64,000 nt of DNA, taken from an uncultured candidate division Zixibacteria bacterium (GTDB lineage Bacteria > Zixibacteria > MSB-5A5 > GN15 > FEB-12). The notes beneath the pieces are model-generated. The model ran no database searches, had not been told where the DNA came from, and saw nothing but the letters and a program-made list of their open reading frames with translations. The stretch covers positions 1,152,001 to 1,216,000 of the forward strand of contig CAVTJJ010000004.1 of assembly GCA_963735035.1 (NCBI GenBank), read 5' to 3'. Made by a program: the position numbers and the translations under genes. Shown piece by piece: positions 45,515-62,870 of this stretch; within the stretch, counting starts at the first letter, position 1, and the number at the start of each line of letters is the position of its first letter.

Positions 45515-45515
45515 G

Positions 45516-47053: not shown

Positions 47054-47066
47054 AAGATCAAATAGT

Positions 47067-47098
47067 AAAGGGCTCTCGGCGTTAGCCGGGAGCCCTTT
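47067..47098. terminator. Bidirectional terminator
   Basis: AAAGGGCTCTCGGC-GTTA-GCCGGGAGCCCTTT between convergent genes. Confidence 0.8.
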
Positions 47099-47119
47099 GA
47101 TCATATGCGGAAGTACGGC

Positions 47120-48241
47120 TTAGCCTTCGATCATCTCGACATTGGCGCGTGGAACGATCGCTTCGGTGTTGTCATCGAACCTGACACCAAGAATACGAGC
47201 CTTCGACTCCGATTCCAGCTTCTGTAGCGGCGACGGGAGATCGGTGACCGTGCCCAAACGACCGAAGTGAGGGTGACGGATCACGCGGATCGGCGAACCG
47301 ATAACCAGTCCGCCCGGTTCCTGTTCGAGAGCATCCGGGGTAATGGCCACACCCGGGGTCGGGATGACCAGTTCCGGTCGAATAACGCCGGCGCGAATCT
47401 GAGTGGCGCCGTTGATGCAGGCCATCTCGCCTTCATGTCGTTTCAAGAGCTCAAACGTCTTGGCGGCCATGTTGATTTGGCCAAAACCTTCGGTGACTAC
47501 CAGCGTGGTCGCGGTGTCTTCGGAGCCGGTAATAGCAACGCCAATGTCATAGCCGAGAAAATCGCGCAGGTCCTTGTCGTCAAATCCGCCGACCACAATG
47601 CCTCGCACGTTGAGCTTGATTGCCTTGCGCAGGGCGCCCGCGGTAACCAGCGATCCGCCGACAATGACTTTACCGGTCATCGATTCGAGCACGAGGTTTT
47701 CGTCCAGAACGACCGTCGGGTCTTTGACTGCGATCTGTATCGGACCGTTCTTTTCGCCGCCGATGCCAAAAATCCCCTGCACGAAACTGGCCATGCACTG
47801 GACTTCGACCCCTTCGGACGGATACACCTGGGTGACCTCGCCCTTCAGATATGCTTTCACCTCGACCGGACTCGGCGCTCCGCGCTGCAGGACCTGGCCT
47901 GTAATCGAAGATATCGATTCGATCGTACCGTCGATAGTAGCGTTGCACTGGTTCTTGAAGATGAAAAGAGTCTTGGAAACCGCCATCAACTCGCCGGCCT
48001 TGATTCGGTCGCCCACTTTCTTGAGCATCACCATTTCGATGTCTTCCGGCGGAATGCCCAGCTTGTTGGCGACGTTTATCGGGACAACACTACCCGGCAG
48101 TTCGGTGCGGGCTACGACATCGTCGGGGTTGACTTGGTCGCCGACTTTTCGAAGGACGTTTCCCTTCAGTGGCAGTATTCTATGTTTTTTGACCAGGAGC
48201 TTTTCTTTGACTTTGAGACCCGGTGTATATGCGTGACCCAT
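47120..48241 (-). CDS. Hypothetical cytoplasmic protein with two barrel-sandwich-hybrid-like motifs and a C-terminal KOW/SH3-like domain
   Basis: KVGDQVNPDDVVA and KKVGDRIKAGELMA; central alpha/beta part VRGIVVGG; C-terminal IGSPIRVIRHPHFGRLGTV. Confidence 0.8.
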   Translation of the reverse strand: MGHAYTPGLKVKEKLLVKKHRILPLKGNVLRKVGDQVNPDDVVARTELPGSVVPINVANKLGIPPEDIEMVMLKKVGDRIKAGELMAVSKTLFIFKNQCNATIDGTIESISSITGQVLQRGAPSPVEVKAYLKGEVTQVYPSEGVEVQCMASFVQGIFGIGGEKNGPIQIAVKDPTVVLDENLVLESMTGKVIVGGSLVTAGALRKAIKLNVRGIVVGGFDDKDLRDFLGYDIGVAITGSEDTATTLVVTEGFGQINMAAKTFELLKRHEGEMACINGATQIRAGVIRPELVIPTPGVAITPDALEQEPGGLVIGSPIRVIRHPHFGRLGTVTDLPSPLQKLESESKARILGVRFDDNTEAIVPRANVEMIEG

Positions 48242-48244
48242 GGT

Positions 48245-49027
48245 TTAACCCTTTTGCGTGTTCGAGCTGTTAGCCTGTTGTCTCTTCTTCCTCAAGCGTA
48301 CTATCAAGACGAGGAGTATGATGAAGAGGGGCGTTCCGAATATGAGCGGATAGTTGAGGGAGCCTTCGGGCTTCTTTTCAATGTCTGCGACCTTTACCGG
48401 TTCGGCCGTGGTCGCATTCGGAAGCGGCTCGGTTGAGACCGACATAATCATCTCACGGTACAACGGAAGATTAGCTGCATACTTGAATGTGGGTGAATAA
48501 AAATAGAAGTTGGCGATACCCTGCTCGTAGAACGTCATGACCAGAAGATTGATCTTGGTTCCGGAACTGTCGCCGGGGACCTCTGATTCTACCGAAGCAC
48601 GCTTGCCCGCCCGGTCGAAGACGACCGAATCCTTGCAGTATGACCTCAGAAAGACATCGGAGGTGACTTCCTTGATGGGGCGCTTGAATTCCGTAGACAA
48701 GCTGCCGATGACCGAATCGATCTGGTGGGGGGCAAGATTGCCGACCGTATCGACTGTGAGGATGAGGTACTGATCCTCGAAAAGGACCATCGCATTCTTC
48801 TCACAGAAGACGGCCTCGAATTCGACTTTCTGGGCCGTATCGCCGCGTGACAGATAGAACTGGGCGGTGGTGTAATCGAGTTGAGTCCAGGTGTCGGGAT
48901 AAGTAAAATGAAACCGGCCGTTGTAGCTGACAAAAGTCTCGGCCGAGGCCGACACCGTCGCCAGGCACAGCGACAACACTACCAGACTCAGCATCAGTCC
49001 CAACCGTGTTAATCTGATCGAATACAT
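48245..49027 (-). CDS. Hypothetical exported protein with C-terminal TM anchor
   Basis: Signal peptide (ASA/ET), FHFTYPDTW, C-terminal TM followed by RLRKKR. Confidence 0.8.
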   Translation of the reverse strand: MYSIRLTRLGLMLSLVVLSLCLATVSASAETFVSYNGRFHFTYPDTWTQLDYTTAQFYLSRGDTAQKVEFEAVFCEKNAMVLFEDQYLILTVDTVGNLAPHQIDSVIGSLSTEFKRPIKEVTSDVFLRSYCKDSVVFDRAGKRASVESEVPGDSSGTKINLLVMTFYEQGIANFYFYSPTFKYAANLPLYREMIMSVSTEPLPNATTAEPVKVADIEKKPEGSLNYPLIFGTPLFIILLVLIVRLRKKRQQANSSNTQKG

Positions 49028-49039
49028 TTAGGTCACTCC

Positions 49040-50899
49040 CTATTTCTGATCCAGCACGCCGGTCGGATAGATGTCCAACTCGGTCATCCACTTCTTCAAT
49101 TGAGCCACGCGATCTTTTTCCGGCAGCGAGGAGAGGTCGAACGGGCGTCCGCGTCCGTCGAGAATGATTCCCACCACACCACCGTGCAGTTCGCGCTCAA
49201 CTTTGTTGCCGGGGCCGGCGCCGACATCGAACCCGCGTTCCGGTTCGAGCACCGCGCGGGCCATCTGAGGCAGGCCATTTTCCTGCAGCCCCAGCTTGAA
49301 CAGTCTCATATCGAGATAGTTCAACGTTCCACTGACAACGCCATCGGGCAGATGGATCTGATACTTCATTATCGGCCCCGGCTTCTTCATTGTCCCAACC
49401 GGAGCGACACAAGTGCCCAGATGAATCAGGCAATCCTTTTCGAATACTTCAGTGGCGGCGCGCGGTTGAACCTCGGTCAGCACACCCAGTTGCGGCATCA
49501 TGAAGATAGAATCCACCGCCAGTCGGGTGACGCCTTCCGGCATGAAAGCATCGATCAACATCAGGCCGGACTGTTGACGGCGCGGCGCGTGAGAGAGCAC
49601 GCCGCCCGAACCGATCAGCATGTCGAGCGTCATCATGTTGACGATCGTTCCACCGGAAGTTGACTGCTCGAAAGCATCGGCGATAGTGCGCTGCTGCTGG
49701 ACACCTTTGAGCACCGTGGCGAAATTCTTGTGCTGAATAAAGGCGAGACGCAGCGCTTCTTTGGCGATGGCCTGTTCGAAAATCAACTCTTCCATCGACT
49801 GCGGAATCGTGGTCGGACGGATCATCTTGTTCTTGACCCGGTTGCGCAGGTCGCGCTCGTTCATCTCGAACGGCACCCAGCGCATGACCATCGGAAGCGT
49901 CGCCTCGGCGAAAACATTCGAAATCGAGTAGGACATGCCCAGGTTGGCCGAGACCGTACGGTTGAAGACGCCGGTCTTGCCGTCCGGACGGAATACCGAG
50001 AAGACGTCAGTCGTAGCGCCGCCGATGTCCACACCCACCGCCTCGATGCCGTACTGGTCGGCGATGGTCTTGATAATCAAACCGACTGCGCCCGGAGTGG
50101 GCATGATCGGGGCGTCGGTCCATTCCATCAGCTTCTTGTAGCCGGGGGCCTGCGCCATGACGTGTTCCATGAAGAGCTCGTGGATTTCTTCGCGGGCCGG
50201 GCCGAGATTTTCCATTTCGAGAACCGGGCGAAGATTGTCGACCGTTCTGAGATCGACCTTGCTTGACAAAGTCTTCTTGACTGCCTCGGCGGCATCTTTG
50301 TTGCCGGCGTAGATAATCGGTAATTTGTATCCGGTGCCCAGGCGTGGCTTGGGATCGGCTGCGGAGACGAGTTCGGCGATTTCAACCACGTGGGTCGTGG
50401 TGCCGCCGTCGATACCGCCTGAAAGAAGGATCATGTCGGGGCGGAGGTGGCGGATGCGTTCGATCTGCTGATGGGGGAGACGCTTGTCATTCGAAGCGAT
50501 GACGTCCATGACGATCGCACCGGCGCCCAGAGCCGCCCGCTCGGCCGATTCGGCGGTCATCGAACGAACCACACCGGCGACCATCATTTGAAGACCGCCT
50601 CCGGCTGATGATGTTGAAATATAGACGTCAGTGCCGATTCCGCCCTTGGCCGGAGATATGAACCGGTTGTTCTCGTCGAGTAACTTGCGTCCCGCCAGCT
50701 CTTCAAGCTCTGCGACCGCATTCAGCACGCCCATGGTTACATCTTCAAACGGGGCTTCCACGGTCGTGGGTGCTTCGCCGCGGGAGATAAGACGGTATTC
50801 GCCGTTCACATACTCGATCAGAATCGCTTTGGTGGTGGTTGATCCGCAATCGGTGGCAACAATTACCTTGATGTCTTCTGGGTTGTCGAACTTAGCCAT
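49040..50899 (-). CDS. GlmL/MutL-like ('glutamate mutase L') ASKHA-fold ATPase, 619 aa
   Basis: TDCGSTTTK (phosphate 1), SSAGGGL, SGGIDGG, YAGN, MPTP, VDIGGATTDVFS (phosphate 2), RTVSANLG, IGSGGVLSH. Confidence 0.87.
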   Translation of the reverse strand: MAKFDNPEDIKVIVATDCGSTTTKAILIEYVNGEYRLISRGEAPTTVEAPFEDVTMGVLNAVAELEELAGRKLLDENNRFISPAKGGIGTDVYISTSSAGGGLQMMVAGVVRSMTAESAERAALGAGAIVMDVIASNDKRLPHQQIERIRHLRPDMILLSGGIDGGTTTHVVEIAELVSAADPKPRLGTGYKLPIIYAGNKDAAEAVKKTLSSKVDLRTVDNLRPVLEMENLGPAREEIHELFMEHVMAQAPGYKKLMEWTDAPIMPTPGAVGLIIKTIADQYGIEAVGVDIGGATTDVFSVFRPDGKTGVFNRTVSANLGMSYSISNVFAEATLPMVMRWVPFEMNERDLRNRVKNKMIRPTTIPQSMEELIFEQAIAKEALRLAFIQHKNFATVLKGVQQQRTIADAFEQSTSGGTIVNMMTLDMLIGSGGVLSHAPRRQQSGLMLIDAFMPEGVTRLAVDSIFMMPQLGVLTEVQPRAATEVFEKDCLIHLGTCVAPVGTMKKPGPIMKYQIHLPDGVVSGTLNYLDMRLFKLGLQENGLPQMARAVLEPERGFDVGAGPGNKVERELHGGVVGIILDGRGRPFDLSSLPEKDRVAQLKKWMTELDIYPTGVLDQK

Positions 50900-51009
50900 C
50901 AGGAATTCATCTCAGCTTTCTGTGTTGTGTCGCGCCTCACAGTTTGTTGTCTCCCAAGCGACTAACTTGGGGCCAAACCAGTGAGGACTATATTACAGTC
51001 AAGTCGAAA

Positions 51010-51038
51010 ATAATACCACAAGCCGTCTACCTTGTAAA
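51010..51038 (-). promoter_or_regulatory. sigma70-type promoter for the GlmL-like operon
   Basis: Minus strand TTTACA-17 nt-TATTAT with extended -10 TG. Confidence 0.55.
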
Positions 51039-51197
51039 GGTCGATTTTGGACGCGCTTATTGACCGACTGATTGACGGCTGCATTTGTTGACAGAGAAGC
51101 GGGGCGTTTTGGGACTCTCGATTTCGGGTTAAAGCGGCTTATCCAATCGAAGCCCCCTTATCGCATTCCATCCTCGGATCCGGTTGGGGGTTTTCAC

Positions 51198-51226
51198 TTG
51201 ACTTGACCCGCAAGTGCCGATAGATT
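51198..51226 (+). promoter_or_regulatory. sigma70-type promoter for the 12-gene membrane operon
   Basis: TTGACT-17 nt-TAGATT. Confidence 0.5.
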
Positions 51227-51394
51227 GGCCTGTTCGAGGTTCCACAGGATTGCTCAGGCCTCCCCGTCGAACCGAACGGTTGTGGTTGCAGGTTGGATTT
51301 GACATTACCGGTCCTGGTTCGTCCCTTGGTGGGCTCGGCCTTCGCTTCCCTTTACAGGATGCGGGCTTAGAGTAGAAAGATTGGACTCTTCAGT

Positions 51395-52636
51395 TTGAGT
51401 GACCGTCTCCGACATCCCTTGACCTTACTGGTTGTCCTCGTACTAGTCGCAGTCCTGCCAATCGGCGCGTTACTGGCTCAATCGCCTCAACCGAATACAT
51501 CGACCCAAACTGCATCGTCGAATCTCCCCGTTCTCCGTCCGATCGATAGTCTGATCGGGAGCGATCTACCCAACGACGATGGGGGTGAAGTCAGACTGCG
51601 CTGGGCGATTTCTCCCGATGATGTCAAAGGTGGGGTGGTCACCGGATATCGCGTTCTGAAAGCTGTCGATCCCGACAGTCCTTTTGTTGAAGTCGGCGAC
51701 GTGGCCTCGGGGACAACCCAATTTGACGGTGGTGACATCGAGAACGGCCGACCGTACTTCTTCAAAGTTCGGGTGATGGGATTAGCGACGGGCGAAAATG
51801 GTGTCGTCAATGAGATCTTCACCGATTCGAAAATTGCCGGCCCCGTTATTTCATCGGTGCAGTACTTTCACGTGGGTCGACTGAATGTTGCGGTTGTCAC
51901 CGCCCTGGTGATTTTCCTGATCATCTTCTGGATTCAACGCGCGCGTTCGGGGGCCAAGCTCTACATTCGCAAGATTGCCGGACTGGATGCGGTTGACGAA
52001 GCCATCGGTCGGGCCACCGAGATGGGCAAGAAGGTTATTTACGTACCGGGCATCGATGATATGGACAATCTCATGACCATTTCCTCGATGATCATCCTGG
52101 GTTACGTGGCCGAAATAACCGCCACCTACGATACGTATTTGGAAGTGCCTACCTGCAAATCGATGGTCATGGTGACGGCCAAGGAAGTGGTGAAAGAAGC
52201 CTATACGAAAGTGGGACGGTCCGATTCTTATCATCCCGACCAGGTGCACTATTTAACCGATGATCAATTCGGCTATGCGGCGGCCATTGACGGCATCGTG
52301 GTACGTCAGAAACCGGCTACCATGTTCTATATAGGGTCATTCTATGCAGAATCGCTGATTCTGGCCGAAATCGGCAACGCCGCCGGCGCCATTCAAATTG
52401 CAGGCACGGCCCAGGCCAGCCAATTGCCGTTTTTCGTGACGGCTTGTGACTATACTCTCATCGGCGAGGAGATGTTCGCCGCTTCAGCTTATCTCTCCAA
52501 AGAGCCGAGGCTTCTCGGTTCGCTCAAGGGACAGGACTACGCCAAGGCTCTGATCCTGGCGGCCATACTTGTCGGTCTGATTCTTGAATCCTTTCATCTC
52601 TGGGGTGGTTTCCACAGCCTCTTTACGGTGGTGTAG
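51395..52636 (+). CDS. Cassette 1 subunit A: signal peptide, FN3-like domain, TM, DUF6754-like domain, TM
   Basis: YIRKIAGLDAVDEAIGRATEMG, AESLILAE, QIAGT, PFFVTACDYTLIGEE, LGSLKGQD; paralogous to 54940 and 58641. Confidence 0.85.
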   Translation: MSDRLRHPLTLLVVLVLVAVLPIGALLAQSPQPNTSTQTASSNLPVLRPIDSLIGSDLPNDDGGEVRLRWAISPDDVKGGVVTGYRVLKAVDPDSPFVEVGDVASGTTQFDGGDIENGRPYFFKVRVMGLATGENGVVNEIFTDSKIAGPVISSVQYFHVGRLNVAVVTALVIFLIIFWIQRARSGAKLYIRKIAGLDAVDEAIGRATEMGKKVIYVPGIDDMDNLMTISSMIILGYVAEITATYDTYLEVPTCKSMVMVTAKEVVKEAYTKVGRSDSYHPDQVHYLTDDQFGYAAAIDGIVVRQKPATMFYIGSFYAESLILAEIGNAAGAIQIAGTAQASQLPFFVTACDYTLIGEEMFAASAYLSKEPRLLGSLKGQDYAKALILAAILVGLILESFHLWGGFHSLFTVV

Positions 52637-52638
52637 CA

Positions 52639-53289
52639 ATGCGTAGAACAGTACCCCTGATTATTACCGGAGTCGTAGGCATTGTATTCGTAGTCTCGTA
52701 TTTTTCGCCCCCCCTTACTATTCTCAACGACAAGTTTTCCGACTGGTTCTCGATCGTGGCGGCTTGTTCGATTGTATTGGGCTCGCTAAATCTGGTACTG
52801 ATTTCCACTCAGAAGGTCATTAGTCGCAGAGAAGATTGGTTCTACGCCGGTGTCATCATAGCTTGCTTCCTGGCGATGCTCATATCGGGTCTCTGGGCCG
52901 GCCGTGACTTCGGGGGTGGGAACACCGGAACCCCGTTCGAATGGCTCTATAACTATCTTTACAACCCGCTGTCGTCTACTATGTACGCGATCCTGGCCTT
53001 CTATGTGGCGTCAGCGTCGTACCGTGCGTTCCGCGCCCGTAACATCGAGGCTACCATGCTTCTGGTTGCCGCGTTTCTGGTTATGCTTGGTCGCGTTCCC
53101 ATTGGCGACGTTCTGACCGGATTCCTTCCCGAGGGCTCCCGGATGTCGGATCTGCAGCAATGGATCATGGATTATCCGCAGACGGCCGGACAACGCGCCA
53201 TCATGATCGGCATTGCGCTCGGTATCGTGTCGACCTCACTTCGCGTAATTCTCGGCGTTGAACGTTCCCACCTTGGGGGAGGCGACTAA
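52639..53289 (+). CDS. Cassette 1 subunit B: about 6-TM membrane protein
   Basis: LAFYVASASYRAFRARN and AGQRAIMIGIALG...LRVILGVER shared with 56215 and 60255. Confidence 0.85.
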   Translation: MRRTVPLIITGVVGIVFVVSYFSPPLTILNDKFSDWFSIVAACSIVLGSLNLVLISTQKVISRREDWFYAGVIIACFLAMLISGLWAGRDFGGGNTGTPFEWLYNYLYNPLSSTMYAILAFYVASASYRAFRARNIEATMLLVAAFLVMLGRVPIGDVLTGFLPEGSRMSDLQQWIMDYPQTAGQRAIMIGIALGIVSTSLRVILGVERSHLGGGD

Positions 53290-53292
53290 GCC

Positions 53293-54315
53293 ATGAACCG
53301 CAAGGCAATCGAAATAGCGGTGTTGCTGACAGGCTTGATCTTCTGTATCGTCGCGTACATCGGCAAAGAGAGTATCCTCGGGTGGCATAAAGGGTATGTC
53401 TTTTCGTATACGACTTCGGTCATAATAATCCTGCTAATCATGCTCTCTCTGCTCTGGATTCTTATTCGGACCATTCAGGACAAGCCGGTCGGCCGCCGGA
53501 TTGTCTTTCTTTACGTTGGCATCGCCATCACTCTCCCGCTGTTTATGTCGTACGATCAGAAGATCGTAGTGACCGAGAGTACTCAGCAGGTTTACGACGC
53601 TGTTCAGGCGCTTCCGGCCGGGGCGAAAGTCCTGGTATCTTTCGACTACGATCCAGCGTCGTCGCCGGAACTTCAGCCGATGGCGGAAGCGTTTCTGGCC
53701 GAGTGCTTCAAACGTCATTTGAAAGTTATAATGGTGGCCCTCTGGGCGCCGGGCGCACTCCAGGCCAACATTGCTATCGACACGGTCAAGGTTAGACTTG
53801 GCCTTGATTCTACTCAGTTGGTTTACGGTGTGGATTATTGTAACCTGGGTTACCAGGCAGGACGTGAATTCGTGATCGCGCGCATGGGGACCAGTTTTGA
53901 GGCGATGTTTGGTAAGGATGTTCGGGGTACGCCGTATCGCGAGATTCCTCTGGTCAGAAACGTAAGAAATTTCTCCGATATCGACTATTCGTTCAATATC
54001 TCGGCCGGTTTCCCCGGAACCGTGGAATGGGTTCAGGTGGCGGTAACTCGTTTTGCCCTGAAACTCGGTGCCGGCAGCACAGCCGTGCAGGCGCCGCAAG
54101 TCTACCCTTACCTGAGGGGGGGACAGTTACTCGGTCTCCTGGCCGGCATGAACGGCGCTGCTGAATTCGAGAAGCTGGTCGGACTCAAAGCCGAAGCTAC
54201 TACGTACATGCTGGCGCAAACCTTCGCTCACGTCATCGTGATCGCCTTTATCATCATCGGCAACGTGGCCTTCTTCCGAAGTGGGCGCAAGTCGGCTAAG
54301 GGAGGGGCGAAGTAA
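53293..54315 (+). CDS. Cassette 1 subunit C: membrane-anchored alpha/beta-domain protein
   Basis: SFDYDP...ELQPM, GVDY.NLGY, YPY, GAAEFE, QTFAHVIVIAFIIIGN; two extra N-terminal TMs. Confidence 0.85.
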   Translation: MNRKAIEIAVLLTGLIFCIVAYIGKESILGWHKGYVFSYTTSVIIILLIMLSLLWILIRTIQDKPVGRRIVFLYVGIAITLPLFMSYDQKIVVTESTQQVYDAVQALPAGAKVLVSFDYDPASSPELQPMAEAFLAECFKRHLKVIMVALWAPGALQANIAIDTVKVRLGLDSTQLVYGVDYCNLGYQAGREFVIARMGTSFEAMFGKDVRGTPYREIPLVRNVRNFSDIDYSFNISAGFPGTVEWVQVAVTRFALKLGAGSTAVQAPQVYPYLRGGQLLGLLAGMNGAAEFEKLVGLKAEATTYMLAQTFAHVIVIAFIIIGNVAFFRSGRKSAKGGAK

Positions 54316-54316
54316 C

Positions 54317-54940
54317 ATGGATCATCTCGGACTCTGGGTAGCAGGCTTATTGACGCTCGGAATTTACTCATTCTTGTATCGTGACAACCCGTGGTACAAG
54401 TTCTCGGAGGCGGTGTTTGTCGGGATCTCAGCCGGATACTGGGTCGTCTACGAATTCTGGAACAATTTTGTCAACAAGTTCTGGGATGGAAGGAATCAGG
54501 ATCCCTGGCTCTGGGTAGGCGCCATTCTTGGTCTGATGATGCTCATGCGGCTGGTTCCTAAGATCGGTTGGATTTCCCGCTGGCCGCTCGCGTTTATCAT
54601 CGGTGCAACCTCGGGACTCTGGCTCATGCTCTATCTTACGACCAACTGCATGTCGCAGGTGGAAGCGACTATTTTCCCGTTGTTTGGCATTCAAAATGAA
54701 GCTTCAATGATCACGATCTTCAGCAGCATCGTACTCATTGTCGGTACGGTCAGCGGCGTCATATATTTCTTCTTCTCCAAAGCTCACACCGGTGCGTTCG
54801 GGGCGACTGCGCGGGTAGGCATATGGACGATCATGATTACGTTCGGAGCGATGTTCGCGCTGACAATCATGAATCGTATGTCGCTTCTGATCGGCCGCAC
54901 TTCGTTCATTTTTGGCCAGTGGCTGGGGCTAATCAAGTAA
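54317..54940 (+). CDS. Cassette 1 subunit D: about 6-TM membrane protein
   Basis: SFLYRDNPWYKFSE, ISRWPLAF, FFFSKAHTG, MITFGA. Confidence 0.85.
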   Translation: MDHLGLWVAGLLTLGIYSFLYRDNPWYKFSEAVFVGISAGYWVVYEFWNNFVNKFWDGRNQDPWLWVGAILGLMMLMRLVPKIGWISRWPLAFIIGATSGLWLMLYLTTNCMSQVEATIFPLFGIQNEASMITIFSSIVLIVGTVSGVIYFFFSKAHTGAFGATARVGIWTIMITFGAMFALTIMNRMSLLIGRTSFIFGQWLGLIK

Positions 54941-56211: not shown

Positions 56212-56214
56212 ACT

Positions 56215-56895
56215 ATGAGACGCGAGATCCCGCTGGCCATAACCATTTTCGTCGGACTACTGGCGATTGTCTCATTCTTCAGTCCTCCCATGGAAGGTCT
56301 GGGCGAAGATTTCACGCTGTTCTTTGATATCATTGCCGTCTTCGCGTTCTTCCTCGGTGGTGGCAATCTCGTTCGCATACATGCCGACAAGTTGATTCGG
56401 AGAAAGAAAGAGTGGGGCTACTCGGTAGTCACGCTGGTCGGCTTCCTGGGGATGCTGGCCGCGGGTCTATTCAAGATCGGCAATCCGGGAGACATATCAA
56501 CTTCGGTAACAGCCCCCGGCTCTTTGTTCGCCACCCTCTATTTCAATTTGAATTTACCGCTGGGAGCGACCATGTACGCACTGCTGGCGTTCTATGTGGC
56601 CTCGGCGTCGTATCGGGCGTTTCGCGCTAAGAATCGTGAAGCCACTGTGCTGCTGGTAGCAGCGTTTGTCATATTGCTCGGCAGCACGCCGTTTGGCACG
56701 ATGCTCACTTCCTGGATACCGTCATCATTCAGTTGGCTGCAGATTCCGAATATGGCGGTCTGGATTATGAGCTCGCCCAACCTGGCCGGACAGCGGGCTA
56801 TCATGATCGGTATCGGTCTCGGTGTAGTGTCGATGTCACTGCGTCTAATTCTAGGCATTGAGCGCACTTATCTTGGAGGGGACGAACGTGGGTGA
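56215..56895 (+). CDS. Cassette 2 subunit B: about 6-TM membrane protein
   Basis: LAFYVASASYRAFRAKN, PNLAGQRAIMIG...LGIERTYLG. Confidence 0.85.
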   Translation: MRREIPLAITIFVGLLAIVSFFSPPMEGLGEDFTLFFDIIAVFAFFLGGGNLVRIHADKLIRRKKEWGYSVVTLVGFLGMLAAGLFKIGNPGDISTSVTAPGSLFATLYFNLNLPLGATMYALLAFYVASASYRAFRAKNREATVLLVAAFVILLGSTPFGTMLTSWIPSSFSWLQIPNMAVWIMSSPNLAGQRAIMIGIGLGVVSMSLRLILGIERTYLGGDERG

Positions 56896-57805
56896 TTACC
56901 GCGTCATAATTGTCCTGCTCCTGATTGGTGGGGGACTGGTCTGGCTGTTGGTGCGGGCGCTGCGCGGCAAGGAAGTTGACCGCCGGTTGGTGTTCGCGTT
57001 CATTTTCATCTCTGTAGCAGCCCCGCTGCTTCTAACGATTACGTTCGAGATGAAACCGACCCCGGTAGTCAAGGCGCTCTATGACCGGATCGATACTCTT
57101 CCGCCAGGATCACGCATTCTCCTGTCGTACGATTTTGATCCGCCCATGGCCCCCGAAGTACAACCCATGGCCGATGTGGTCAGCCGCCATTGTCTGGCGC
57201 GGGGACATAAAGTAGTCTTTATGACACTCTGGGCGACTGGGCAGGCGCAGTTTCTCGCGACCCTTCAGGATGTGATTCGCCCCGACTTCCCCGATATGAA
57301 GGATGGCGTCGACTACGTTGATCTCGGCTACAAGGCCGGCAACGAGGGTGTGCTGAACGTCATCCGCACCGATTTCAAGAAGATGTTTCCGACCGATGTC
57401 AACACGGTGCCGTGGGACAGCATTCCCATTCTCGACGGGATTCGATCCTGCTCCGATTTTGATTTGATCGTCTCGCTGGGCGGCGGCAAGCCGGGTGTCA
57501 AAGAATGGGTCCTGTTCGTGGGTGATCCGTGCGGCGTTCCGACCGCCGGTGGCGTGGCGGCAGTGGTGGCCCCGATGCTCTACCCATACTATCCGACCCA
57601 GATGTGTGGTCTGCTCGGTGGAATCAAGGGAGCGGCCGAATACGAGAATTATCTGCGTGACAATTATCCGCGTTTCGCCAAAATGAAAACTCCGGCGATG
57701 GTCATGATGGGGCCTCAGACTGTGGCGCACGTAGTAATCCTGGCTTTCATTGTCATTGGTAATGTTCTTTTCTTCGTCCAGCGTCGCAAAGAGGTGAAAC
57801 GATGA
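56888..57805 (+). CDS. Cassette 2 subunit C: membrane-anchored alpha/beta-domain protein
   Basis: GTG after GGAGGG; SYDFDP...EVQPM, GVDYVDLGY, YPYY, GAAEYE, QTVAH...IGN. Confidence 0.85.
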   Translation: MGDYRVIIVLLLIGGGLVWLLVRALRGKEVDRRLVFAFIFISVAAPLLLTITFEMKPTPVVKALYDRIDTLPPGSRILLSYDFDPPMAPEVQPMADVVSRHCLARGHKVVFMTLWATGQAQFLATLQDVIRPDFPDMKDGVDYVDLGYKAGNEGVLNVIRTDFKKMFPTDVNTVPWDSIPILDGIRSCSDFDLIVSLGGGKPGVKEWVLFVGDPCGVPTAGGVAAVVAPMLYPYYPTQMCGLLGGIKGAAEYENYLRDNYPRFAKMKTPAMVMMGPQTVAHVVILAFIVIGNVLFFVQRRKEVKR

Positions 57806-58635
57806 GCCGCCTGAGTATCATTGTCCTCGCGGCGGTCTGCCTGCTCTTTGCGGTGAGCTGGGTGGTTAGAGCGGGTGTGACCGAAGGCGACACGGCGGTG
57901 CGCGATGCGTTTCTCGTGACCCTGTCGGCCTTTATGACCCTCGCGATCATGTCGTTCATGTACAAGGACAATCCGTATTACAAATTCGCCGAGCACCTGT
58001 TCGTGGGGATTTCGGCCGCCTACTGGATGTGTGTCGGGTTCTGGTCAACGATTGTTGGCAACCTGGTCCCGCGGGTGTCCGAGAGTCTGTCGGCCTTCTT
58101 CAGAGTGCCGTACTCAGGTGGCGGGCTGGATTTCGGTGCGATCTACCTGCCGTATCGCTATTTCTACATGATCCCGGTCATCCTGGGGATCTTGTTACTG
58201 ATGCGCCTGGTGCCGAAGGCGGGCTGGCTCTCGCGCTGGCCACTGGCGTTCATCGTCGGCACGTTTGCCGGTCTTAATTTGATACGGTATCTCCAGTCAG
58301 ATTTTGTCAATCAGATCTCCGCGACATTCATACCGCTGGTTACCGACTGGCATGGGTTCGGAGCCTTCTTCTCAGGATTGTCACTATCGTTTGACGGCCA
58401 ACTGGTCGCTATTTTGACGAACCTCGTGATTTTTCTTGGTGTATTTTGCGGATTGATATATTTCTATTTCTCGAAGGAACATACTGGATGGTTCGGAAAT
58501 GCGTCGCGCTTTGGTATCTGGATTCTCATGATCACTTTCGGCGCGTCTTTCGGCTATACGGTTATGGGACGCATATCGCTCCTGGTGGGGCGGCTGACGT
58601 TTCTGTTCCAGGACTGGTTAGGAATTAGAGGCTAA
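57802..58635 (+). CDS. Cassette 2 subunit D: multi-TM membrane protein
   Basis: SFMYKDNPYYKFAEHLFVG, LSRWPLAF, FSKEHTG, MITFGASFG. Confidence 0.85.
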   Translation: MSRLSIIVLAAVCLLFAVSWVVRAGVTEGDTAVRDAFLVTLSAFMTLAIMSFMYKDNPYYKFAEHLFVGISAAYWMCVGFWSTIVGNLVPRVSESLSAFFRVPYSGGGLDFGAIYLPYRYFYMIPVILGILLLMRLVPKAGWLSRWPLAFIVGTFAGLNLIRYLQSDFVNQISATFIPLVTDWHGFGAFFSGLSLSFDGQLVAILTNLVIFLGVFCGLIYFYFSKEHTGWFGNASRFGIWILMITFGASFGYTVMGRISLLVGRLTFLFQDWLGIRG

Positions 58636-58640
58636 ATCAT

Positions 58641-60242
58641 ATGTCCTTGGTGAAAGGTCGCCAGATGAGACACAAACTCAGACTTGCGATTGTCCTGATG
58701 CTGGGCCTCGGGTCGGTCGCGGTCGCACAGACCGATCCGGCAACGGCGGGTTCGGCTGCGGTCGTACAGCCGGGAGCCGAGGTTCGAGCCGTCTCGCCCC
58801 CTGCCCCGATAACCAACCTGCAGGCAGTCGACAAGAAGGATGACCATGGTCACGCTATCACGTTGACCTGGACGAAATCGGCTGACGACGGCGCAGGCGC
58901 CAACTCGGTTATCTCGTACGAAATCCAGCGCTGGTTTCCGTTCCAGATGGACGTAGTCGAGTCGCTGCGTAAAGATTTGGCGGCCACACGGGACGCCGTC
59001 AGAGCCTTCCGAATCGATCTGCCTCGGGCGGAGCGGGCGCTCGAAGAACTCCGCGAGGATCCGGGCAAGCTGAATACGATTCGATTTCAGGTAGCCAGAC
59101 CACCTGATACGAGCTTCAAACCAACGGTCGACTATGCGATCAAGAAGCTCGAAGATACTATCGGGTATATGCGCGACAATCGGCCGCTCCTGATGAGTCG
59201 GATAAAGCCAATGCAGCAGGATCTTGACAAGGCGCTTGATCGTCTGCCTGAGGCACATGTCGCTTATCCCAAAGACGGGGAATGGCGATCGGTAGGGAAG
59301 GCCCTGGTGGGAGCCACCAGCTTTGACAACGTCGGTTCTAAAGATAATTTGTCGGCCGACTACTTTCCCGACTATACCGATCTGTACTACCGGGTACAGG
59401 CTGCCACGGCCGATGCGTCGGTAAAGTCGGTCGCGGTCACGGTTGGTCCGATCCAGAGCCGGGGGCAGTGGATTCACATGGGCAAGCTCCCGGTGCTCGG
59501 TTTCGTGCTGCTGTTCTTTGTTCTCACCGTGACTTTTGTACAGAAGGCGAAGAGTGGGGCGGATCTTTACGTCAGACCACTGGCAGGAATTGAGGCTGTC
59601 GACGACGCCATCGGTCGCGCCACCGAGATGGGACGCCCCATACTCTACTTGCTCGGGATCGGGACTGCCACCGATGTATCCACTATCGCGTCGTTCTCGA
59701 TTCTGGGACGGGTTTCCAAGCGGGTGGCTGAATACCAGACACCGATTATTGTCCCCTGTTATGACCCGATCGTGATGGCGGTAGCTCAGGAAGTGGTTAA
59801 GTCATCGTATCTGGACGCCGCCCGGGCGGATGATTACAGGCAGGATTCGGTGTTCTTCGTTACGAACTATCAGTTCGCCTATGTGGCGGCGGTCAACGGC
59901 ATTATGCTTCGCGAGCGCCCCGCTACCAATATATACATGGGCAAATTCATGGCTGAGTCCTTGCTTCTGGCCGAGACCGGAACGCTGGCCGGGTCGATTC
60001 AGATCGCGGGCACCGATGAAATCGCTCAAATTCCATTCTTCATCGTGTCGTGTGACTATACCCTGATTGGTGAAGAACTCTACGCTGCGTCGGCGTATCT
60101 CGGCCGGGAGCCGGTGTTGCTCGGTTCGCTCAAGGCCCAGGACTGGGCCAAGGCCGTCGTGATGTTGATTGCCGTTATCGGGATGATCGGTACCGCTCTC
60201 GGCTGGGCCGATTTCGCACATTGGTTCCAGGTAACGGAGTAG
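58641..60242 (+). CDS. Cassette 3 subunit A: FN3-like domain with helical insert plus DUF6754-like domain
   Basis: RPLAGIEAVDDAIGRATEMG, LGSLKAQD; alternative start 58665. Confidence 0.85.
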   Translation: MSLVKGRQMRHKLRLAIVLMLGLGSVAVAQTDPATAGSAAVVQPGAEVRAVSPPAPITNLQAVDKKDDHGHAITLTWTKSADDGAGANSVISYEIQRWFPFQMDVVESLRKDLAATRDAVRAFRIDLPRAERALEELREDPGKLNTIRFQVARPPDTSFKPTVDYAIKKLEDTIGYMRDNRPLLMSRIKPMQQDLDKALDRLPEAHVAYPKDGEWRSVGKALVGATSFDNVGSKDNLSADYFPDYTDLYYRVQAATADASVKSVAVTVGPIQSRGQWIHMGKLPVLGFVLLFFVLTVTFVQKAKSGADLYVRPLAGIEAVDDAIGRATEMGRPILYLLGIGTATDVSTIASFSILGRVSKRVAEYQTPIIVPCYDPIVMAVAQEVVKSSYLDAARADDYRQDSVFFVTNYQFAYVAAVNGIMLRERPATNIYMGKFMAESLLLAETGTLAGSIQIAGTDEIAQIPFFIVSCDYTLIGEELYAASAYLGREPVLLGSLKAQDWAKAVVMLIAVIGMIGTALGWADFAHWFQVTE

Positions 60243-60254
60243 GAGGTAAACTGA

Positions 60255-61070
60255 ATGAAACAACAAGTGCCACGTCTAATAGTACTCGTATTTGGAGCGT
60301 TCCTCCTATTTCAATTCTTTGTTCCCCATGAATCGTCTGAGTGGATCTACGAATTCCTGCTCGATTGGACCATCATCATAGGTGTGTTCGCGCTTGCGGT
60401 AGGTATCTGGTCGATCTTCAACGTTCACGTCGAGAAGATTCGGACCAAGAAATTCGGCTGGAAGTACTCATACGTAACGCTGACCGGATTCGTTGCTATG
60501 GTGCTGTTCGGCATGACCAGCCAGAACGGTCAGGAATGGGGCTGGTTCTTTCCGTTCATAGCCGCGGCGATCCTGACGGTACTTATGATTGTGCAGGCCA
60601 GTGCCTCCAAGGGGAACGCCGGACCGTTTATCGGTGCCGCCTTGCTGTTCGTCGTCGCAGCGGCGGTCATTGCCTGGAGAGACAATACCTGGAGTTTCTA
60701 CTTCCAGACGCCGGTGCCGCTCCAATCCTTCATGTTCCGGAGGATGTTTGATAACGTTCTGATTTCGCTTCACGCCACGACGTTTTCGCTGCTGGCGTTC
60801 TTCATAGCGTCGGCGGCGTACCGATCTTTCCGGGCCCGCAACGTTATGGCCAGTCTGTTGCTCATCGCGGCGCTGGTAGTGATGTCCCGGTTCAACCCGT
60901 ATCTCGAACCACTCTTCGGCGAGAAAGTAAATCGGCTGTCGAACTGGCTGATGAACGTCCCCAACCTGGCGGCTCAGAGAGCGGTCATCATGGGGATCGG
61001 GCTGGGTATGGTGGCGACAGCGCTCAAGGTGGTGCTGGGTATTGAACGCAACTATATGGGCAAAGGATAA
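60255..61070 (+). CDS. Cassette 3 subunit B: membrane protein with two extra TMs
   Basis: LAFFIASAAYRSFRARN, PNLAAQRAVIMG...LGIERNYMG; AGGAGG RBS. Confidence 0.85.
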   Translation: MKQQVPRLIVLVFGAFLLFQFFVPHESSEWIYEFLLDWTIIIGVFALAVGIWSIFNVHVEKIRTKKFGWKYSYVTLTGFVAMVLFGMTSQNGQEWGWFFPFIAAAILTVLMIVQASASKGNAGPFIGAALLFVVAAAVIAWRDNTWSFYFQTPVPLQSFMFRRMFDNVLISLHATTFSLLAFFIASAAYRSFRARNVMASLLLIAALVVMSRFNPYLEPLFGEKVNRLSNWLMNVPNLAAQRAVIMGIGLGMVATALKVVLGIERNYMGKG

Positions 61071-61081
61071 GGAGTCCGGTC

Positions 61082-61969
61082 ATGAATATATTCGATAGAT
61101 TGATGCAGCTTGACCGGCGTTGGGTGTTCCTCTTTCTGGCGATTGTGTGTGTAATCGCCTACGCTTCCCAATTTGAGGTGCCCATTCTGGTTGAGCCCGA
61201 AGTGAAGGCTATTTTCACGTTCATCGATACCTTGCCCAAGGGGTCGGTGGTGTTTGTTCCAATGGATTACGATCCCGGCTCGATGGCGGAGCTGCATCCC
61301 ATGACTTATGCCATTGTCGAGCAATGCTGGCGCAAAGAGTTGAAGGTACTGATTACAGCGTTATCTCAGAACGGACCCGGCATGGCCGATCAGGCCATTC
61401 GGGAAATCGTCGACTCGCTGAAAATGCCCCGTACATACAATGGTGTGTCCTACCCGGCGCGGGAAATTGTCAACGGTGTTGACTACGTCTTCCTGGGCTA
61501 CAAGCCGTATCCGGCCATTGTTATCCTTGGCATGGGGCAGAATTTCCGCTTGCCGTTCCCGCTTGATTATTACGGGACGCCAATCGATTCGCTTCCAATG
61601 ATGCGAACGATTCAGAACTACAATGACATCGCCTGTGCGATCAATATCTCGGGCACGAACGCCACCGACTATTGGATATCGTACGGTCAGGGCAAGTTCG
61701 GATTCCCGCTGGCGATAGGTGTCACCGGCGTTTCGACGGCCCAGTATTATCCCTACTATGGCTCGCGGCAGATCTTCGGCATCATGGGTGGAATGCTGGG
61801 CGCGGCGGAGTATGAGGATCTATCCGATAATCCGGGCAACGCCAAGGATGCCATGCGCGTGCAGCTTTCGGCGCATCTGGTCATTATCGCCTTTGTCGTT
61901 ATGGGCAACATCGCGTACTTCGTGACCTTGCGAAAACGGAAACGCGGTCAAACGGAAGGAAGGAGGTAA
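61082..61969 (+). CDS. Cassette 3 subunit C: membrane-anchored alpha/beta-domain protein
   Basis: MDYDP...ELHPM, GVDYVFLGY, YPYY, GAAEYE, QLSAH...MGN, RKRKR tail. Confidence 0.85.
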   Translation: MNIFDRLMQLDRRWVFLFLAIVCVIAYASQFEVPILVEPEVKAIFTFIDTLPKGSVVFVPMDYDPGSMAELHPMTYAIVEQCWRKELKVLITALSQNGPGMADQAIREIVDSLKMPRTYNGVSYPAREIVNGVDYVFLGYKPYPAIVILGMGQNFRLPFPLDYYGTPIDSLPMMRTIQNYNDIACAINISGTNATDYWISYGQGKFGFPLAIGVTGVSTAQYYPYYGSRQIFGIMGGMLGAAEYEDLSDNPGNAKDAMRVQLSAHLVIIAFVVMGNIAYFVTLRKRKRGQTEGRR

Positions 61970-61973
61970 CGCC

Positions 61974-62807
61974 GTGGATTACACGACTTTCCTGTGGACA
62001 ACTGCCGGAGCCTTCCTGACGCTCTGCATCTTCTCGTTCTTGTACAAAGACAATCCTTTCTATAAGTTCGCCGAACATCTCTTCGCTGGACTCTCGGCCG
62101 GGTACTTCGCCATGATTCTATGGCACAACGGCCTGATTCCCAAGCTGATGTATGATCGCTTGGACGATGGCAACTGGTATTTCCTCTGGCTGGATTCGTC
62201 CAAGCCCTGGTTCCTGATTCCGGCGCTGCTAGGGGTTCTGATGTGGACCCGCTTCTCGCAGAAATACCAGTGGATATCGCGGTTCCCGCTCGCGATGTAT
62301 ATCGGCATCGGCGCCGGCATGGCGATACCTCTGGAGATGCGCGCCCGAGTGAACGAACAATTGTCGGCCATGATGCGCACGGCTCCATGGAATCAAGCTT
62401 ATTGGGACCACTTCTTCGGTAACGGCGGGTTCAACCTGCTTGACACGATGTCCGGTCTCTCGCAGTTGATCGTCTTCATAGGCGCCATCTGTGCTCTGGT
62501 GTACTTCTTCTTCTCGAAGGCCCATACCGGGGTCGTTGGGGGCATGGCCAAGTTCGGTATCTGGATATTGATGATCGGTTTTGGTGCGTCATTCGGTTTC
62601 ACCGTGATGGCGCGTGTATCGTTGTTCATCAACCGGATGCAGTTCCTTGACCAGCGGTGGATCAAGACCGCGACTGCTGAGGCCGCGCCATGGTGGTACC
62701 TGGGGATTCTACTCCTCGTGGTGACGGTGGCTGTGGTCTACGCGGTCTGGGAGATTGTTGCCTTCATGGGTCGCAAGAAGAACGCGGGCGCCAATCAAGC
62801 CGGCTGA
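61974..62807 (+). CDS. Cassette 3 subunit D: multi-TM membrane protein
   Basis: SFLYKDNPFYKFAEHLFAG, ISRFPLAM, FFFSKAHTG, MIGFGASFG; extra C-terminal TM. Confidence 0.85.
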   Translation: MDYTTFLWTTAGAFLTLCIFSFLYKDNPFYKFAEHLFAGLSAGYFAMILWHNGLIPKLMYDRLDDGNWYFLWLDSSKPWFLIPALLGVLMWTRFSQKYQWISRFPLAMYIGIGAGMAIPLEMRARVNEQLSAMMRTAPWNQAYWDHFFGNGGFNLLDTMSGLSQLIVFIGAICALVYFFFSKAHTGVVGGMAKFGIWILMIGFGASFGFTVMARVSLFINRMQFLDQRWIKTATAEAAPWWYLGILLLVVTVAVVYAVWEIVAFMGRKKNAGANQAG

Positions 62808-62833: not shown

Positions 62834-62870
62834 GAAACCCTGCCTTTTCAGAGGCGGGGTTTCTTTTTTT
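62834..62870 (+). terminator. Rho-independent terminator closing the 12-gene operon
   Basis: GAAACCCTGCCT...AGGCGGGGTTTC followed by T7. Confidence 0.85.

Follow-up and report, generated by a model that had tools for sequence, protein, structure and literature searches.

A long GlmL/MutL-like ATPase linked to four-gene DUF6754 membrane sets: a putative ATP-coupled inner-membrane system in a candidate Zixibacteria genome

Genes of the two divergent operons

The window, that is the whole 64,000-nt stretch of DNA that was analysed, comes from an uncultured candidate division Zixibacteria bacterium and carries two divergent operons (Table 1). The leftward one comprises three genes, encoding an ATPase, a TM-anchored exported protein of 260 aa and a soluble protein (hereafter P373), with gaps of 12 nt between the first two and of 3 nt between the last two, and its reading as an operon was confirmed. 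The rightward one, at 51395-62807, contains 12 genes that are separated by 12 nt or less or overlap, in the order A-B-C-D repeated three times. Two starts in the list of open reading frames were moved: that of D1 from 54281 to the ATG at 54317, which abolishes an overlap with C1, and that of A2 from 54823 to the ATG at 54940, which shares 1 nt with the stop of D1 and begins a signal peptide.

The threefold repeat proposed in the initial annotation is real. All 12 pairs of proteins carrying the same letter matched each other in BLASTP (12/12, E from 1e-32 to 1e-110), with identities of 43-47% for A, 28-50% for B, 32-37% for C (C1 being 35-37% identical to C2 and C3) and 37-41% for D, and no match between different letters had an E below 0.3 among the 12 proteins. 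The signatures assigned to each position are present in the translations, except that B3 reads AFF and not AFY. The single terminator placed after the array was also recovered; since the total of terminator-like sites in our scan (21) is not above that of shuffled sequences (16.7, sd 3.6), only this strong site counts. In the intergenic region two sigma-70-like matches, at 51038-51010 (minus strand) and 51198-51226 (plus strand), are candidate promoters by their patterns alone. The sequence spanning this region (L006) gave no Rfam match, and no riboswitch or other clue to a substrate was found upstream of the ABCD cassettes.

Table 1. Features of the two operons and of the region between them
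Feature	Position	Strand	Description
P373	47120-48241	-	373-aa soluble protein; barrel-sandwich hybrid, swivelling beta/beta/alpha domain and KOW/SH3-like barrel
260-aa protein	48245-49027	-	N-terminal signal/anchor, exported domain, C-terminal TM helix; 2 TM segments by hydropathy
ATPase	49040-50899	-	619-aa double-ASKHA ATPase, GlmL/MutL family, long form; PF13941 E 5.9e-128
Divergent intergenic region	50900-51394	.	495 nt, between both operons
A1	51395-52636	+	Signal peptide, exported domain, TM, cytoplasmic DUF6754 domain, C-terminal TM; PF20539 E 2.9e-115
B1	52639-53289	+	Polytopic membrane protein; 5 hydrophobic segments; 50% identical to B2
C1	53293-54315	+	N-terminal TM(s), extracytoplasmic Rossmann-like domain (fold inferred from C3 model), C-terminal TM
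D1	54317-54940	+	Polytopic membrane protein; 37-41% identical to D2, D3
A2	54940-56211	+	Build as A1; PF20539 E 5.1e-121; fn3 E 4.4e-4 in exported part, below cut-off
B2	56215-56895	+	Paralog of B1/B3
C2	56858-57805	+	Paralog of C1/C3
D2	57802-58635	+	Paralog of D1/D3
A3	58641-60242	+	Longest exported part of A1-A3, ~270 aa; PF20539 E 2.4e-111
B3	60255-61070	+	Paralog of B1/B2
C3	61082-61969	+	TM helix, alpha/beta Rossmann-like domain, long C-terminal TM helix (predicted model)
D3	61974-62807	+	Paralog of D1/D2
Intrinsic-terminator-like hairpin	62834-62863	+	13-bp stem, 7 G-C pairs, T run; directly after D3

Families and predicted structures of the encoded proteins

The ATPase, present in a single copy in the genome, matches the MutL family PF13941 over the full profile (positions 1-450 of 450; 427.9 bits against a gathering cut-off of 27) and carries a C-terminal extension of about 130 aa. 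Its scores stay below the NCBIfam cut-offs for GlmL as methylaspartate mutase accessory (NF040745, 237 bits against an equivalog cut-off of 475), for the GlmL-related Or-4 (NF040744, 223 against 600) and for the GlmL family (TIGR01319, 170.7 against 204.05). In an alignment of 35 sequences from several phyla, with a mean column identity of 68%, the stretches D17-K24, S97-G102, G161-G166, D291-D298 and G430-G433 are invariant, and we read them as the glycine-rich ASKHA motifs that bind phosphate and adenosine; across phyla the identity is 62-89%. The assignment to the GlmL-like ASKHA ATPases made in the initial annotation is upheld. GlmL/MutL is described as a chaperone reactivating glutamate mutase (PMC4682846, legend of Fig 4). 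Met_asp_mut_E (PF06368), the glutamate mutase family, was found neither among the neighbours in the window nor in the genome, which is 96.9% complete, in agreement with the B12 mutase subunits having been noted as absent.

P373 was modelled with a pLDDT of 85.3, and its domains agree with the soluble barrel-sandwich/KOW protein that had been described, with a swivelling domain in addition. Its N-terminal domain resembles those of RnfC (8ahx_C, Z 8.0) and NqrA (4u9o_A, Z 7.9), the swivelling domain resembles the phospho-His domains of PTS enzyme I (Z 9.5) and rifampin phosphotransferase (Z 8.6), and the KOW-like barrel resembles the NusG C-terminal domain (Z 8.6) and NdhS, PsaE and PetP (Z 7.3-8.0). 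A phospho-His swivel of the PTS enzyme I type is not supported, despite the Z of 9.5, by conservation of the catalytic His: the alignment of 35 sequences has no invariant His in the swivel (residues 151-296), and PF00391 gave no match in P373. Neither does P373 qualify as a lipoyl or biotinyl carrier, with Biotin_lipoyl at 18.5 bits, below the cut-off of 22.1, and K, R, Q, S, V or E at the hairpin position, nor as an RnfC or NqrA, since only the N-terminal domain is alike and no Fe-S/flavin family or motif was found. No DdrA chain occurs among the 50 structural matches listed for P373.

The three A proteins are full-length members of DUF6754 (PF20539), with 384, 403 and 371 bits for A1, A2 and A3 against a gathering cut-off of 27 (E from 2e-111 to 5e-121). 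The Pfam entry assigns no function to this family, and neither the four-gene context nor the link with an ATPase is part of it. Among 120 long forms of A, 54 have PQQ-like propellers in the ectodomain, 12 have Fn3 domains, one has RHS and 53 have no other domain; these ectodomains are binding scaffolds and not solute-binding proteins, and therefore a simple small-solute importer is not favoured. B1 has no Pfam family; B and D matched no transporter family in Pfam, NCBIfam or the protein atlas, which gave no named look-alike cluster for D2. The C3 model (pLDDT 93.7) has generic best structural matches, MT0777 (Z 9.9) and RCK/KTN domains (Z 8.8), and Foldseek returned nothing for it at E of 1e-3 or less. 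From the positive residues beside the TM helices, read in the sequences and in the C3 model, the domain of A is predicted to lie inside and that of C outside. The patterns CxxC, CxxCH and Walker A are absent from all 15 proteins, as are ABC_tran and the Fe-S, haem and flavin families of Pfam, just as had been noted before; an ABC ATPase with Walker A, by which an ABC or ECF transporter is recognised, is found in none of them.

Linkage, conservation and predicted docking

The central claim of the initial annotation, that ABCD goes together with the GlmL-like ATPase and its 373-aa partner, is borne out by gene neighbourhoods, co-occurrence, gene fusions and predicted docking. Considering the loci of several phyla with at least 8 kb on both flanks of the ATPase, ABCD genes lie within 10 kb of it in 26 of 38 (24 complete sets). 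Two layouts recur: divergent DCBA sets as in the window (20 loci), and ATPase-P373-A-B-C-D in the same direction in other phyla (25 loci). When the genomes of ten loci without ABCD nearby were searched whole, 9 had four to six DUF6754 genes elsewhere; the tenth (G008) has no DUF6754 and only a P373 reading frame shortened to 244 aa. P373 adjoins the ATPase in 48 of the 53 loci with at least 3.5 kb downstream, and two of its best 150 relatives (P0018 and P0109) are MutL+P373 fusions. Within the phylum of G161 (151 genomes), where the distribution is patchy, DUF6754 and P373 occur in 10 genomes each, both being present in 9 and neither in 140, with one genome having DUF6754 alone (a partial match) and one P373 alone; in the phylum of G162 (30 genomes) 27 have both, one has P373 alone (cut by the contig end) and two have neither. 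Related genomes are not independent, and these tables therefore overstate the association.

The 260-aa protein behaves differently from the ATPase. It belongs to no Pfam family, and out of 80 loci it occurs in 31, which all come from close relatives and in which it is 26-39% identical where the ATPase is 79-89% identical; it is a lineage-specific add-on, and its place as a core part of the system is lost. The system does include two other small, conserved membrane proteins, E and F, whose genes lie outside the window in this genome and follow an LpoA-like gene (Peripla_BP_6 E 4.8e-38, LppC E 6.8e-16). The order LpoA-like-E-F occurs in 22 of 30 loci of the same phylum, and also in L038, L049, L054, L059, L070 and L079, where the ATPase comes next. 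E is present in all 41 genomes and DUF6754 in all 151 genomes examined for each in this phylum. As to the three paralogous versions of ABCD, three in tandem are indeed present in the window, but the genome holds five sets, against one ATPase, one P373 and one E. This ratio of one motor to many units is not universal: Bacillota-like genomes have several P373 paralogs, and one locus (L077) has two ATPase-P373 pairs in tandem.

A complex of the ATPase with the cytoplasmic domain of A was predicted with ipSAE values of 0.66, 0.68 and 0.66 in three runs, while the best of three controls scored 0.00; of 157 solved complexes 116 attain this mark, as do 2 of 215 mismatched pairs. The contacts agree in at least 89%, with partner pLDDT of at least 79. 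Neither chain has a homologue among solved structures, so the prediction does not reproduce a known complex. The predicted interface covers residues 195-212, 244-246, 328-333 and 348-356 of A1 and is built from the motifs that are conserved best in the two proteins, including the invariant T208 and E209 of A at the contact with the nucleotide loops of the ATPase. On the side of A, the five paralogs all agree at 13 of the 25 residues of the interface, versus 52 of 178 other residues of the domain (Fisher p 0.037, positions not being independent). The predicted docking site of the ATPase is therefore the cytoplasmic DUF6754 domain of A, as expected from the interaction that had been suggested; these values express the confidence of a model and are no measurement.

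Possible functions and likeness to known systems

Pfam, NCBIfam, structure comparison and Foldseek gave no characterised match for ABCD or the ATPase system, and no paper on it was found, consistent with the earlier statement that it matches no system that could be named. On the demonstrated linkage and conservation of these genes we base our preferred reading, held with a confidence slightly short of even: most parts of an inner-membrane system that is conserved, uncharacterised and coupled to ATP would be encoded by this region, and the system would be a modular translocation machine driven by ATP. The motor would be the ATPase with its obligatory partner P373, and its glycine-rich nucleotide-binding loops would dock onto the invariant GRATEMG loop in the DUF6754 domain of A. 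A would assemble with two polytopic proteins, B and D, and with C, which would expose its Rossmann-like domain to the outside, while E and F would be small membrane parts encoded elsewhere in the genome. ATP binding and hydrolysis would most probably drive a conformational cycle in A, passed through B and D to the outer face, where C and the variable ectodomain of A would hold the substrate that is moved or handled. A single motor would thus serve five diverged units, three of them in tandem here, recalling the shared energising modules of ECF transporters. We only infer work across the membrane, its direction and its substrate; the missing transporter-family match of B and D, the generic fold of C, the lack of a substrate clue upstream, the ectodomains of A as binding scaffolds, the exceptions to one motor for many units and the flanking genes of other phyla, which share no single theme, speak against translocation. 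The earlier interpretation as a whole is partly supported.

A bolder form of the translocation reading, which we regard as doubtful, is that an ATPase of the ASKHA (actin/Hsp70) fold, and not an ABC, P-type or rotary one, powers exchangeable four-subunit units, which would make the system a primary active membrane machine of a new class. The ATPase might then act by transiently phosphorylating or clamping the invariant Thr-Glu in the GRATEMG loop, the variable Fn3 or propeller ectodomains would set the cargo of each unit, and this cargo might be envelope polymers or proteins, not small solutes.

The main rival, rather unlikely in our judgement, is a machine for envelope growth or maintenance, in which the actin-fold module and ABCD would not carry a solute but organise or regulate the synthesis of the cell wall or outer envelope. 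The position of E and F directly behind the LpoA-like gene here, the same order in related loci, the universality of the system in its phylum and the Fn3 and BamB-like propeller ectodomains of A are consistent with it. So are the genes TolQ-TolR-TolA-TolB-Pal-YbgF, which follow the ATPase operon (TolQ being no more than 10 kb away in 16 of the 38 loci with full flanks), and the CdsA, YegS-type lipid kinase and RlpA-like genes beside the module in Marinimicrobia-type loci. However, Tol-Pal neighbours are seen in a single phylum, where plain inherited synteny could account for them, and the gap of 888 nt between P373 and TolQ makes co-transcription doubtful. Moreover, Bacillota-like genomes carry the system though they are without LpoA and Tol-Pal biology, and the up to 11 DUF6754 copies per genome fit diversified specificities better than a single growth machine.

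It is improbable that the complex is a transmembrane sensor or transducer, with A as a receptor whose state the ATPase and P373 would read or reset. The receptor-like build of A with its variable ectodomains, the swivel of P373 and the position of T208 and E209 would agree with this, but none of the 15 proteins has a DNA-binding, kinase or cyclase output domain, the swivel is without an invariant His, the obligatory presence of three further subunits in the membrane (B, C and D) would be unusual, and the conservation of the ATPase across phyla is beyond that usual for sensors. Highly improbable is a cofactor-free ion- or redox-coupled complex akin to Rnf/Nqr with P373 replacing RnfC/NqrA: RnfC_N is matched weakly by a relative (P0035, E 1.9e-4), the N-terminal domain of P373 is RnfC- and NqrA-like and the KOW-like barrel resembles NdhS, PsaE and PetP, dockers on membrane complexes, but the Z scores are within the range of unrelated folds, the 15 proteins have no Fe-S, flavin or haem motif or family, and Pfam and NCBIfam gave no Rnf or Nqr family for B or D. 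An ordinary reactivase of a B12-dependent mutase, with membrane genes adjacent by chance, is scarcely credible in spite of the strong PF13941 match and of the role described for GlmL/MutL, given scores below every GlmL-type cut-off, the missing mutase, P373 and ABCD as constant neighbours and the co-occurrence of P373 with DUF6754.

Among known systems, GlmL/MutL, the accessory (reactivating) protein of glutamate mutase, and Or-4 of ornithine degradation share with the ATPase the Pfam family, the double-ASKHA build and intact nucleotide motifs. The ATPase differs from them in being about 150 aa longer, in scoring below all equivalog and subfamily cut-offs with no mutase gene found, and in its constant partners P373, E, F and ABCD. 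The enzyme on which GlmL acts has a small subunit of Rossmann type, and here the predicted docking is on the alpha/beta domain of A. The diol and glycerol dehydratase reactivases DdrAB/GdrAB combine an ASKHA ATPase with a swivelling domain and act by subunit exchange; here the swivelling beta/beta/alpha domain is carried by the separate, sometimes fused P373, and this analogy suggests a chaperone-like cycle of ATP-driven opening and closing, which would act on a membrane complex here and acts on a soluble B12 enzyme there. ECF transporters are alike in having one motor gene set and, as here with five, scattered or tandem membrane units, but the present system has no ABC ATPase or Walker A, its units have four subunits and there is no relation in sequence. 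The actin-fold proteins of PilM-PilN, FtsA and MreB-RodZ dock on bitopic membrane proteins, just as the predicted contact of the ASKHA protein here is with the cytoplasmic side of A, a subunit with a single-pass anchor, with LpoA-like and Tol-Pal genes as neighbours; the ATPase, however, is of a different ASKHA family and there are many paralogous units per genome. Taken together, the ABCD sets, the ATPase and its partner look like a widespread ATP-coupled membrane machine that has never been studied.

Gene organisation and copy number of the system

The initial annotation had described an exact, threefold A-B-C-D gene repeat, and this is borne out by the frames, by their spacing and by comparison of the same-letter proteins. 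Twelve intact forward-strand frames occupy positions 51395-62807, overlapping or separated by at most 12 nt; starts in the ORF list were too long for D1 and A2, for which 54317 and 54940 are likelier. In BLASTP all 12 same-letter pairs match (identity 43-47% for A, 28-50% for B, 32-37% for C and 37-41% for D), while no cross-letter pair has an E-value below 0.3, so the pattern is not due to chance. On the opposite strand the 619-aa ATPase is followed by a 260-aa protein, with one TM helix at either end, and by the 373-aa soluble protein (P373); the two gaps measure 12 and 3 nt. A1-A3 belong to DUF6754, while the ATPase matches PF13941 (MutL/GlmL) over the whole profile. CxxC, CxxCH and Walker A motifs are absent from all 15 proteins. 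Pfam gave no significant family for B, C, D, the 260-aa protein or the small membrane proteins E and F, encoded outside the window, and the only NCBIfam match of the 260-aa protein was PsbP, which scored 20 bits where 60 are required.

Three ABCD sets had been counted earlier, but a search of the host genome (3.6 Mb, 96.9% complete) gives five: the three in the window and two lone cassettes elsewhere (see table; G000 is the host genome). It has one copy each of the ATPase, the 260-aa protein and P373. Rfam searches of the surroundings of the other two cassettes and of the ATPase returned only sub-threshold miRNA-type matches, from a single hairpin. This long, near-perfect hairpin, matched on both strands, lies upstream of the fourth cassette (G000:C4:449426-449522, or L002:2553-2649 in the extracted locus) and is probably a REP-like or terminator hairpin.

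Features of the system and its surroundings in the window and in the host genome (G000)
Feature	Position	Strand	Remarks
Tol-Pal cluster (TolQ, TolR, TolA/TonB-like, TolB, Pal/OmpA, YbgF-like TPR)	window 41090-46232	-	complete
137-aa ORF	window 46691-47104	-	between P373 and TolQ
Terminator-like hairpin	window 62834-62863		3' of D3; strong
Fourth ABCD set	G000:C4:446213-449216	-	short A without exported domain
Fifth ABCD set	G000:C6:659332-662271	+	short A without exported domain
E-F pair	G000:C3:357064-358070		on another contig than the window; directly behind LpoA-like gene
LpoA-like gene + E + F	G000:C3:357064-359504 (L089:5065-7505)	-	Peripla_BP_6 and LppC matches
PTS enzyme I + HPr	G000:C4:452660-454748 (L087:14661-16749)	-	3.4 kb upstream of fourth ABCD set, same strand

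Linkage of the parts across genomes

Across 185,579 species genomes we found 587 relatives of the ATPase, and the best 80 loci were analysed. Their ATPases are 62-89% identical across phyla, the records being assigned to Zixibacteria, Eisenbacteria, Latescibacterota, Neomarinimicrobiota, Gemmatimonadota and Bacillota, among others. ABCD genes are present at 46 of these 80 loci and at 26 of the 38 that have at least 8 kb on either side of the ATPase (complete sets at 24), and P373 at 48 of the 53 with at least 3.5 kb downstream of it. Two layouts recur: divergent DCBA sets, as in the window (20 loci), and ATPase-P373-A-B-C-D in one direction (25 loci). Twelve fully flanked loci lack nearby ABCD; for 10 of them we searched the whole genome, and nine of these possess 4-6 DUF6754 genes elsewhere. 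In the remaining one, locus L046 of genome G008, DUF6754 is absent and the P373 frame is truncated to 244 aa; this is a complete chromosome labelled Planctomycetota, with an ATPase 76% identical, and its ATPase and shortened P373 may be what is left of a decaying system or a product of binning.

We also counted DUF6754 and P373 genome by genome. In a phylum where the system is sparse, both were found in 9 of the 151 genomes sampled and neither in 140, with DUF6754 alone in one (a partial match) and P373 alone in another; in a phylum of 30 genomes, 27 have both, none has DUF6754 alone, one has P373 alone (cut by a contig end) and two have neither. DUF6754 occurs in all 151 genomes of the window's own phylum that are at least 90% complete, mostly in 4-6 copies. 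Since related genomes are not independent, these tables indicate association but not its strength. The P373 family comprises 3662 representative clusters (E-value up to 1e-3), and two MutL+P373 fusions of about 1000 aa are found among its best 150 representatives. Gene neighbourhoods, co-occurrence and fusions together support the proposed linkage between ABCD and the ATPase with its partner. Overall, this is a large system with strong conservation and a wide distribution.

A Bacillota-labelled MAG carries two ATPase-P373 pairs in tandem (L077:5752-13081); its first P373 is 457 aa long and contains an additional stretch of about 80 aa, a repeat of the barrel-sandwich region, and genomes of that phylum have several P373 paralogs each.

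Concerning the parts list, the ATPase, P373 and ABCD stand as first proposed, E and F had been missing from it, and the 260-aa protein has to be removed from the core, as it occurs at only 31 of the 80 loci, all close relatives, and evolves fast. E (about 140-165 aa) has two TM helices and a C-terminal domain, and F measures about 110-170 aa. They accompany the ATPase at 30 of the 80 loci, in the order E-F-ATPase-P373-ABCD or with E/F between P373 and A. In the window's phylum 40 of 41 genomes have just one E gene and the other shows an extra marginal match, F adjoins E in 29 of 30 loci and an LpoA-like gene lies upstream in 22 of 30; the LpoA-like-E-F trio stands before the ATPase at loci L038, L049, L054, L059, L070 and L079. 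An IS30-type transposase gene is located just past F in the host (L089:3985-4983).

Properties of the proteins and predicted docking

The glycine-rich nucleotide motifs of the ATPase are all invariant among 35 sequences (mean column identity 68%). The protein scores under every NCBIfam GlmL-type cut-off and the host genome, at 96.9% completeness, yielded no gene for the E subunit of glutamate mutase, from which we conclude that it is a relative of GlmL and not GlmL itself. A PDB sequence search returned nothing for the ATPase (best E-value 0.43) or for the P373 profile (best 0.014).

The P373 model (pLDDT 85.3) has three domains: a barrel-sandwich hybrid resembling the N-terminal domains of RnfC (Z 8.0) and NqrA (Z 7.9); a swivelling beta/beta/alpha domain similar to the phospho-histidine domain of PTS enzyme I (Z 9.5, rmsd 2.6 over 104 residues) and to that of rifampin phosphotransferase (Z 8.6); and a KOW/SH3-like barrel similar to the NusG C-terminal domain (Z 8.6) and to NdhS/PsaE/PetP. 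These Z values are middling and silent on function, and in Foldseek NusG was the sole match at an E-value up to 1e-3. In the alignment the swivelling domain has no invariant histidine and the lysine of lipoyl-type domains is not kept, so that P373 is neither a phospho- nor a lipoyl carrier of the known kinds.

In the model of subunit C3 (pLDDT 93.7) a Rossmann-like alpha/beta domain stands between one TM helix and a second, long one at the C-terminus. Its structural matches are generic (MT0777, Z 9.9; RCK/KTN domains, Z 8.8), Foldseek gave none at an E-value up to 1e-3, and the protein atlas led C3 to unnamed clusters only and D2 to no usable named match. The positive-inside rule places the DUF6754 domain of A in the cytoplasm and the C domain outside. 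Pseudo-symmetry among the subunits gained nothing from hhalign, with probabilities of 1.8% for A against C and 0.7% for B against D.

Complexes were predicted for the ATPase with the cytoplasmic domain of A1 (residues 182-384), using separate alignments; neither the ATPase nor the A chain has a solved homologue. The docking scores (ipSAE) were 0.66, 0.68 and 0.66, against 0.00 for the best of three controls, with contact agreement of at least 89% and partner pLDDT of at least 79; the docking mark is attained by 116 of 157 solved complexes and by 2 of 215 mismatched pairs. The predicted interface comprises the invariant GRATEMG loop and three other conserved stretches of A, and, on the ATPase, the VVRSMT and GGIDGGTTTH loops together with residues 398-415. 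Across the five A paralogs 13 of 25 interface residues are identical, compared with 52 of 178 elsewhere in the domain. As a prediction, the modelling supports binding of the ATPase to the cytoplasmic domain of A.

Possible functions and comparison with known systems

The functional clues are weak and point two ways, translocation or the envelope. We tentatively place first, at slightly less than an even chance, an ATP-driven modular translocation machine, on the grounds that a single motor would face five diverged units with variable ectodomains, that one subunit domain is outward-facing and that two subunits are polytopic.

A machine for envelope growth is the main rival, clearly less likely, and several contexts speak for it. 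The LpoA-like gene is linked to E-F. The Tol-Pal cluster lies directly downstream in the window, 888 nt from P373 on the same strand, and occurs within 10 kb at 16 of the 38 fully flanked loci, being divergently upstream instead in some relatives (L042, L048, L051). CdsA, a YegS-type kinase and an RlpA-like gene adjoin the module in other phyla, and long A forms have ectodomains of the binding-scaffold type (54 PQQ-like propellers, 12 Fn3 and one RHS among the best 120 of 371). A sensor is improbable; an Rnf/Nqr-like coupling complex, the kind of system from which the RnfC and NqrA fold matches come, is still more so, and we give hardly any credence to a plain mutase reactivase for this GlmL relative.

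The other flanks were surveyed at 16 loci, choosing the 61 of 124 ORFs nearest to the module, and a single functional theme was not found; among the products encoded there are a glycine-cleavage P protein, peptidases of the M4 and M20 families and an SSF symporter. Near the two lone host cassettes are an ABC sugar system, PTS enzyme I and HPr; a bacterial-type PGI gene, a GNAT gene and unknown genes lie between the PTS pair and the fourth set. Downstream of D, a gene for a sugar nucleotidyltransferase with a tail of hexapeptide repeats is found in a distant phylum (L071:16256-17329) and likewise behind the fourth cassette (G000:C4:444348-445376), in each case beside a SAM synthetase or SAH hydrolase gene. 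The 137-aa ORF next to P373 was left out of the system, having no match in Pfam or, by tblastn, in the 80 loci, and is possibly not a true gene. Matches to the type IX secretion families PorP/SprF-like and Por_Secre_tail at window positions 29894-32363, both under Pfam cut-offs, are compatible with an FCB-group organism.

No paper on the system or on its DUF6754 (PF20539) family was found, nor a solved structure, and no member of the system has a tested function despite its wide spread. Experimental handles exist in the predicted docking surface, in the parts themselves (E, F, ATPase, P373 and A-D) and in the LpoA-like and Tol-Pal contexts. If an actin-fold ATPase does energise the membrane units, this would be a new kind of motor, few couplings of ATP to transmembrane work being known, and would explain a major unknown of many uncultured phyla. 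The core of the original proposal, in which the ATPase and its partner serve a membrane complex unlike any known system, finds support in the linkage, the predicted docking and the negative database searches; the systems with which it is to be compared are DdrAB, the ECF transporters and PilM/FtsA/MreB.
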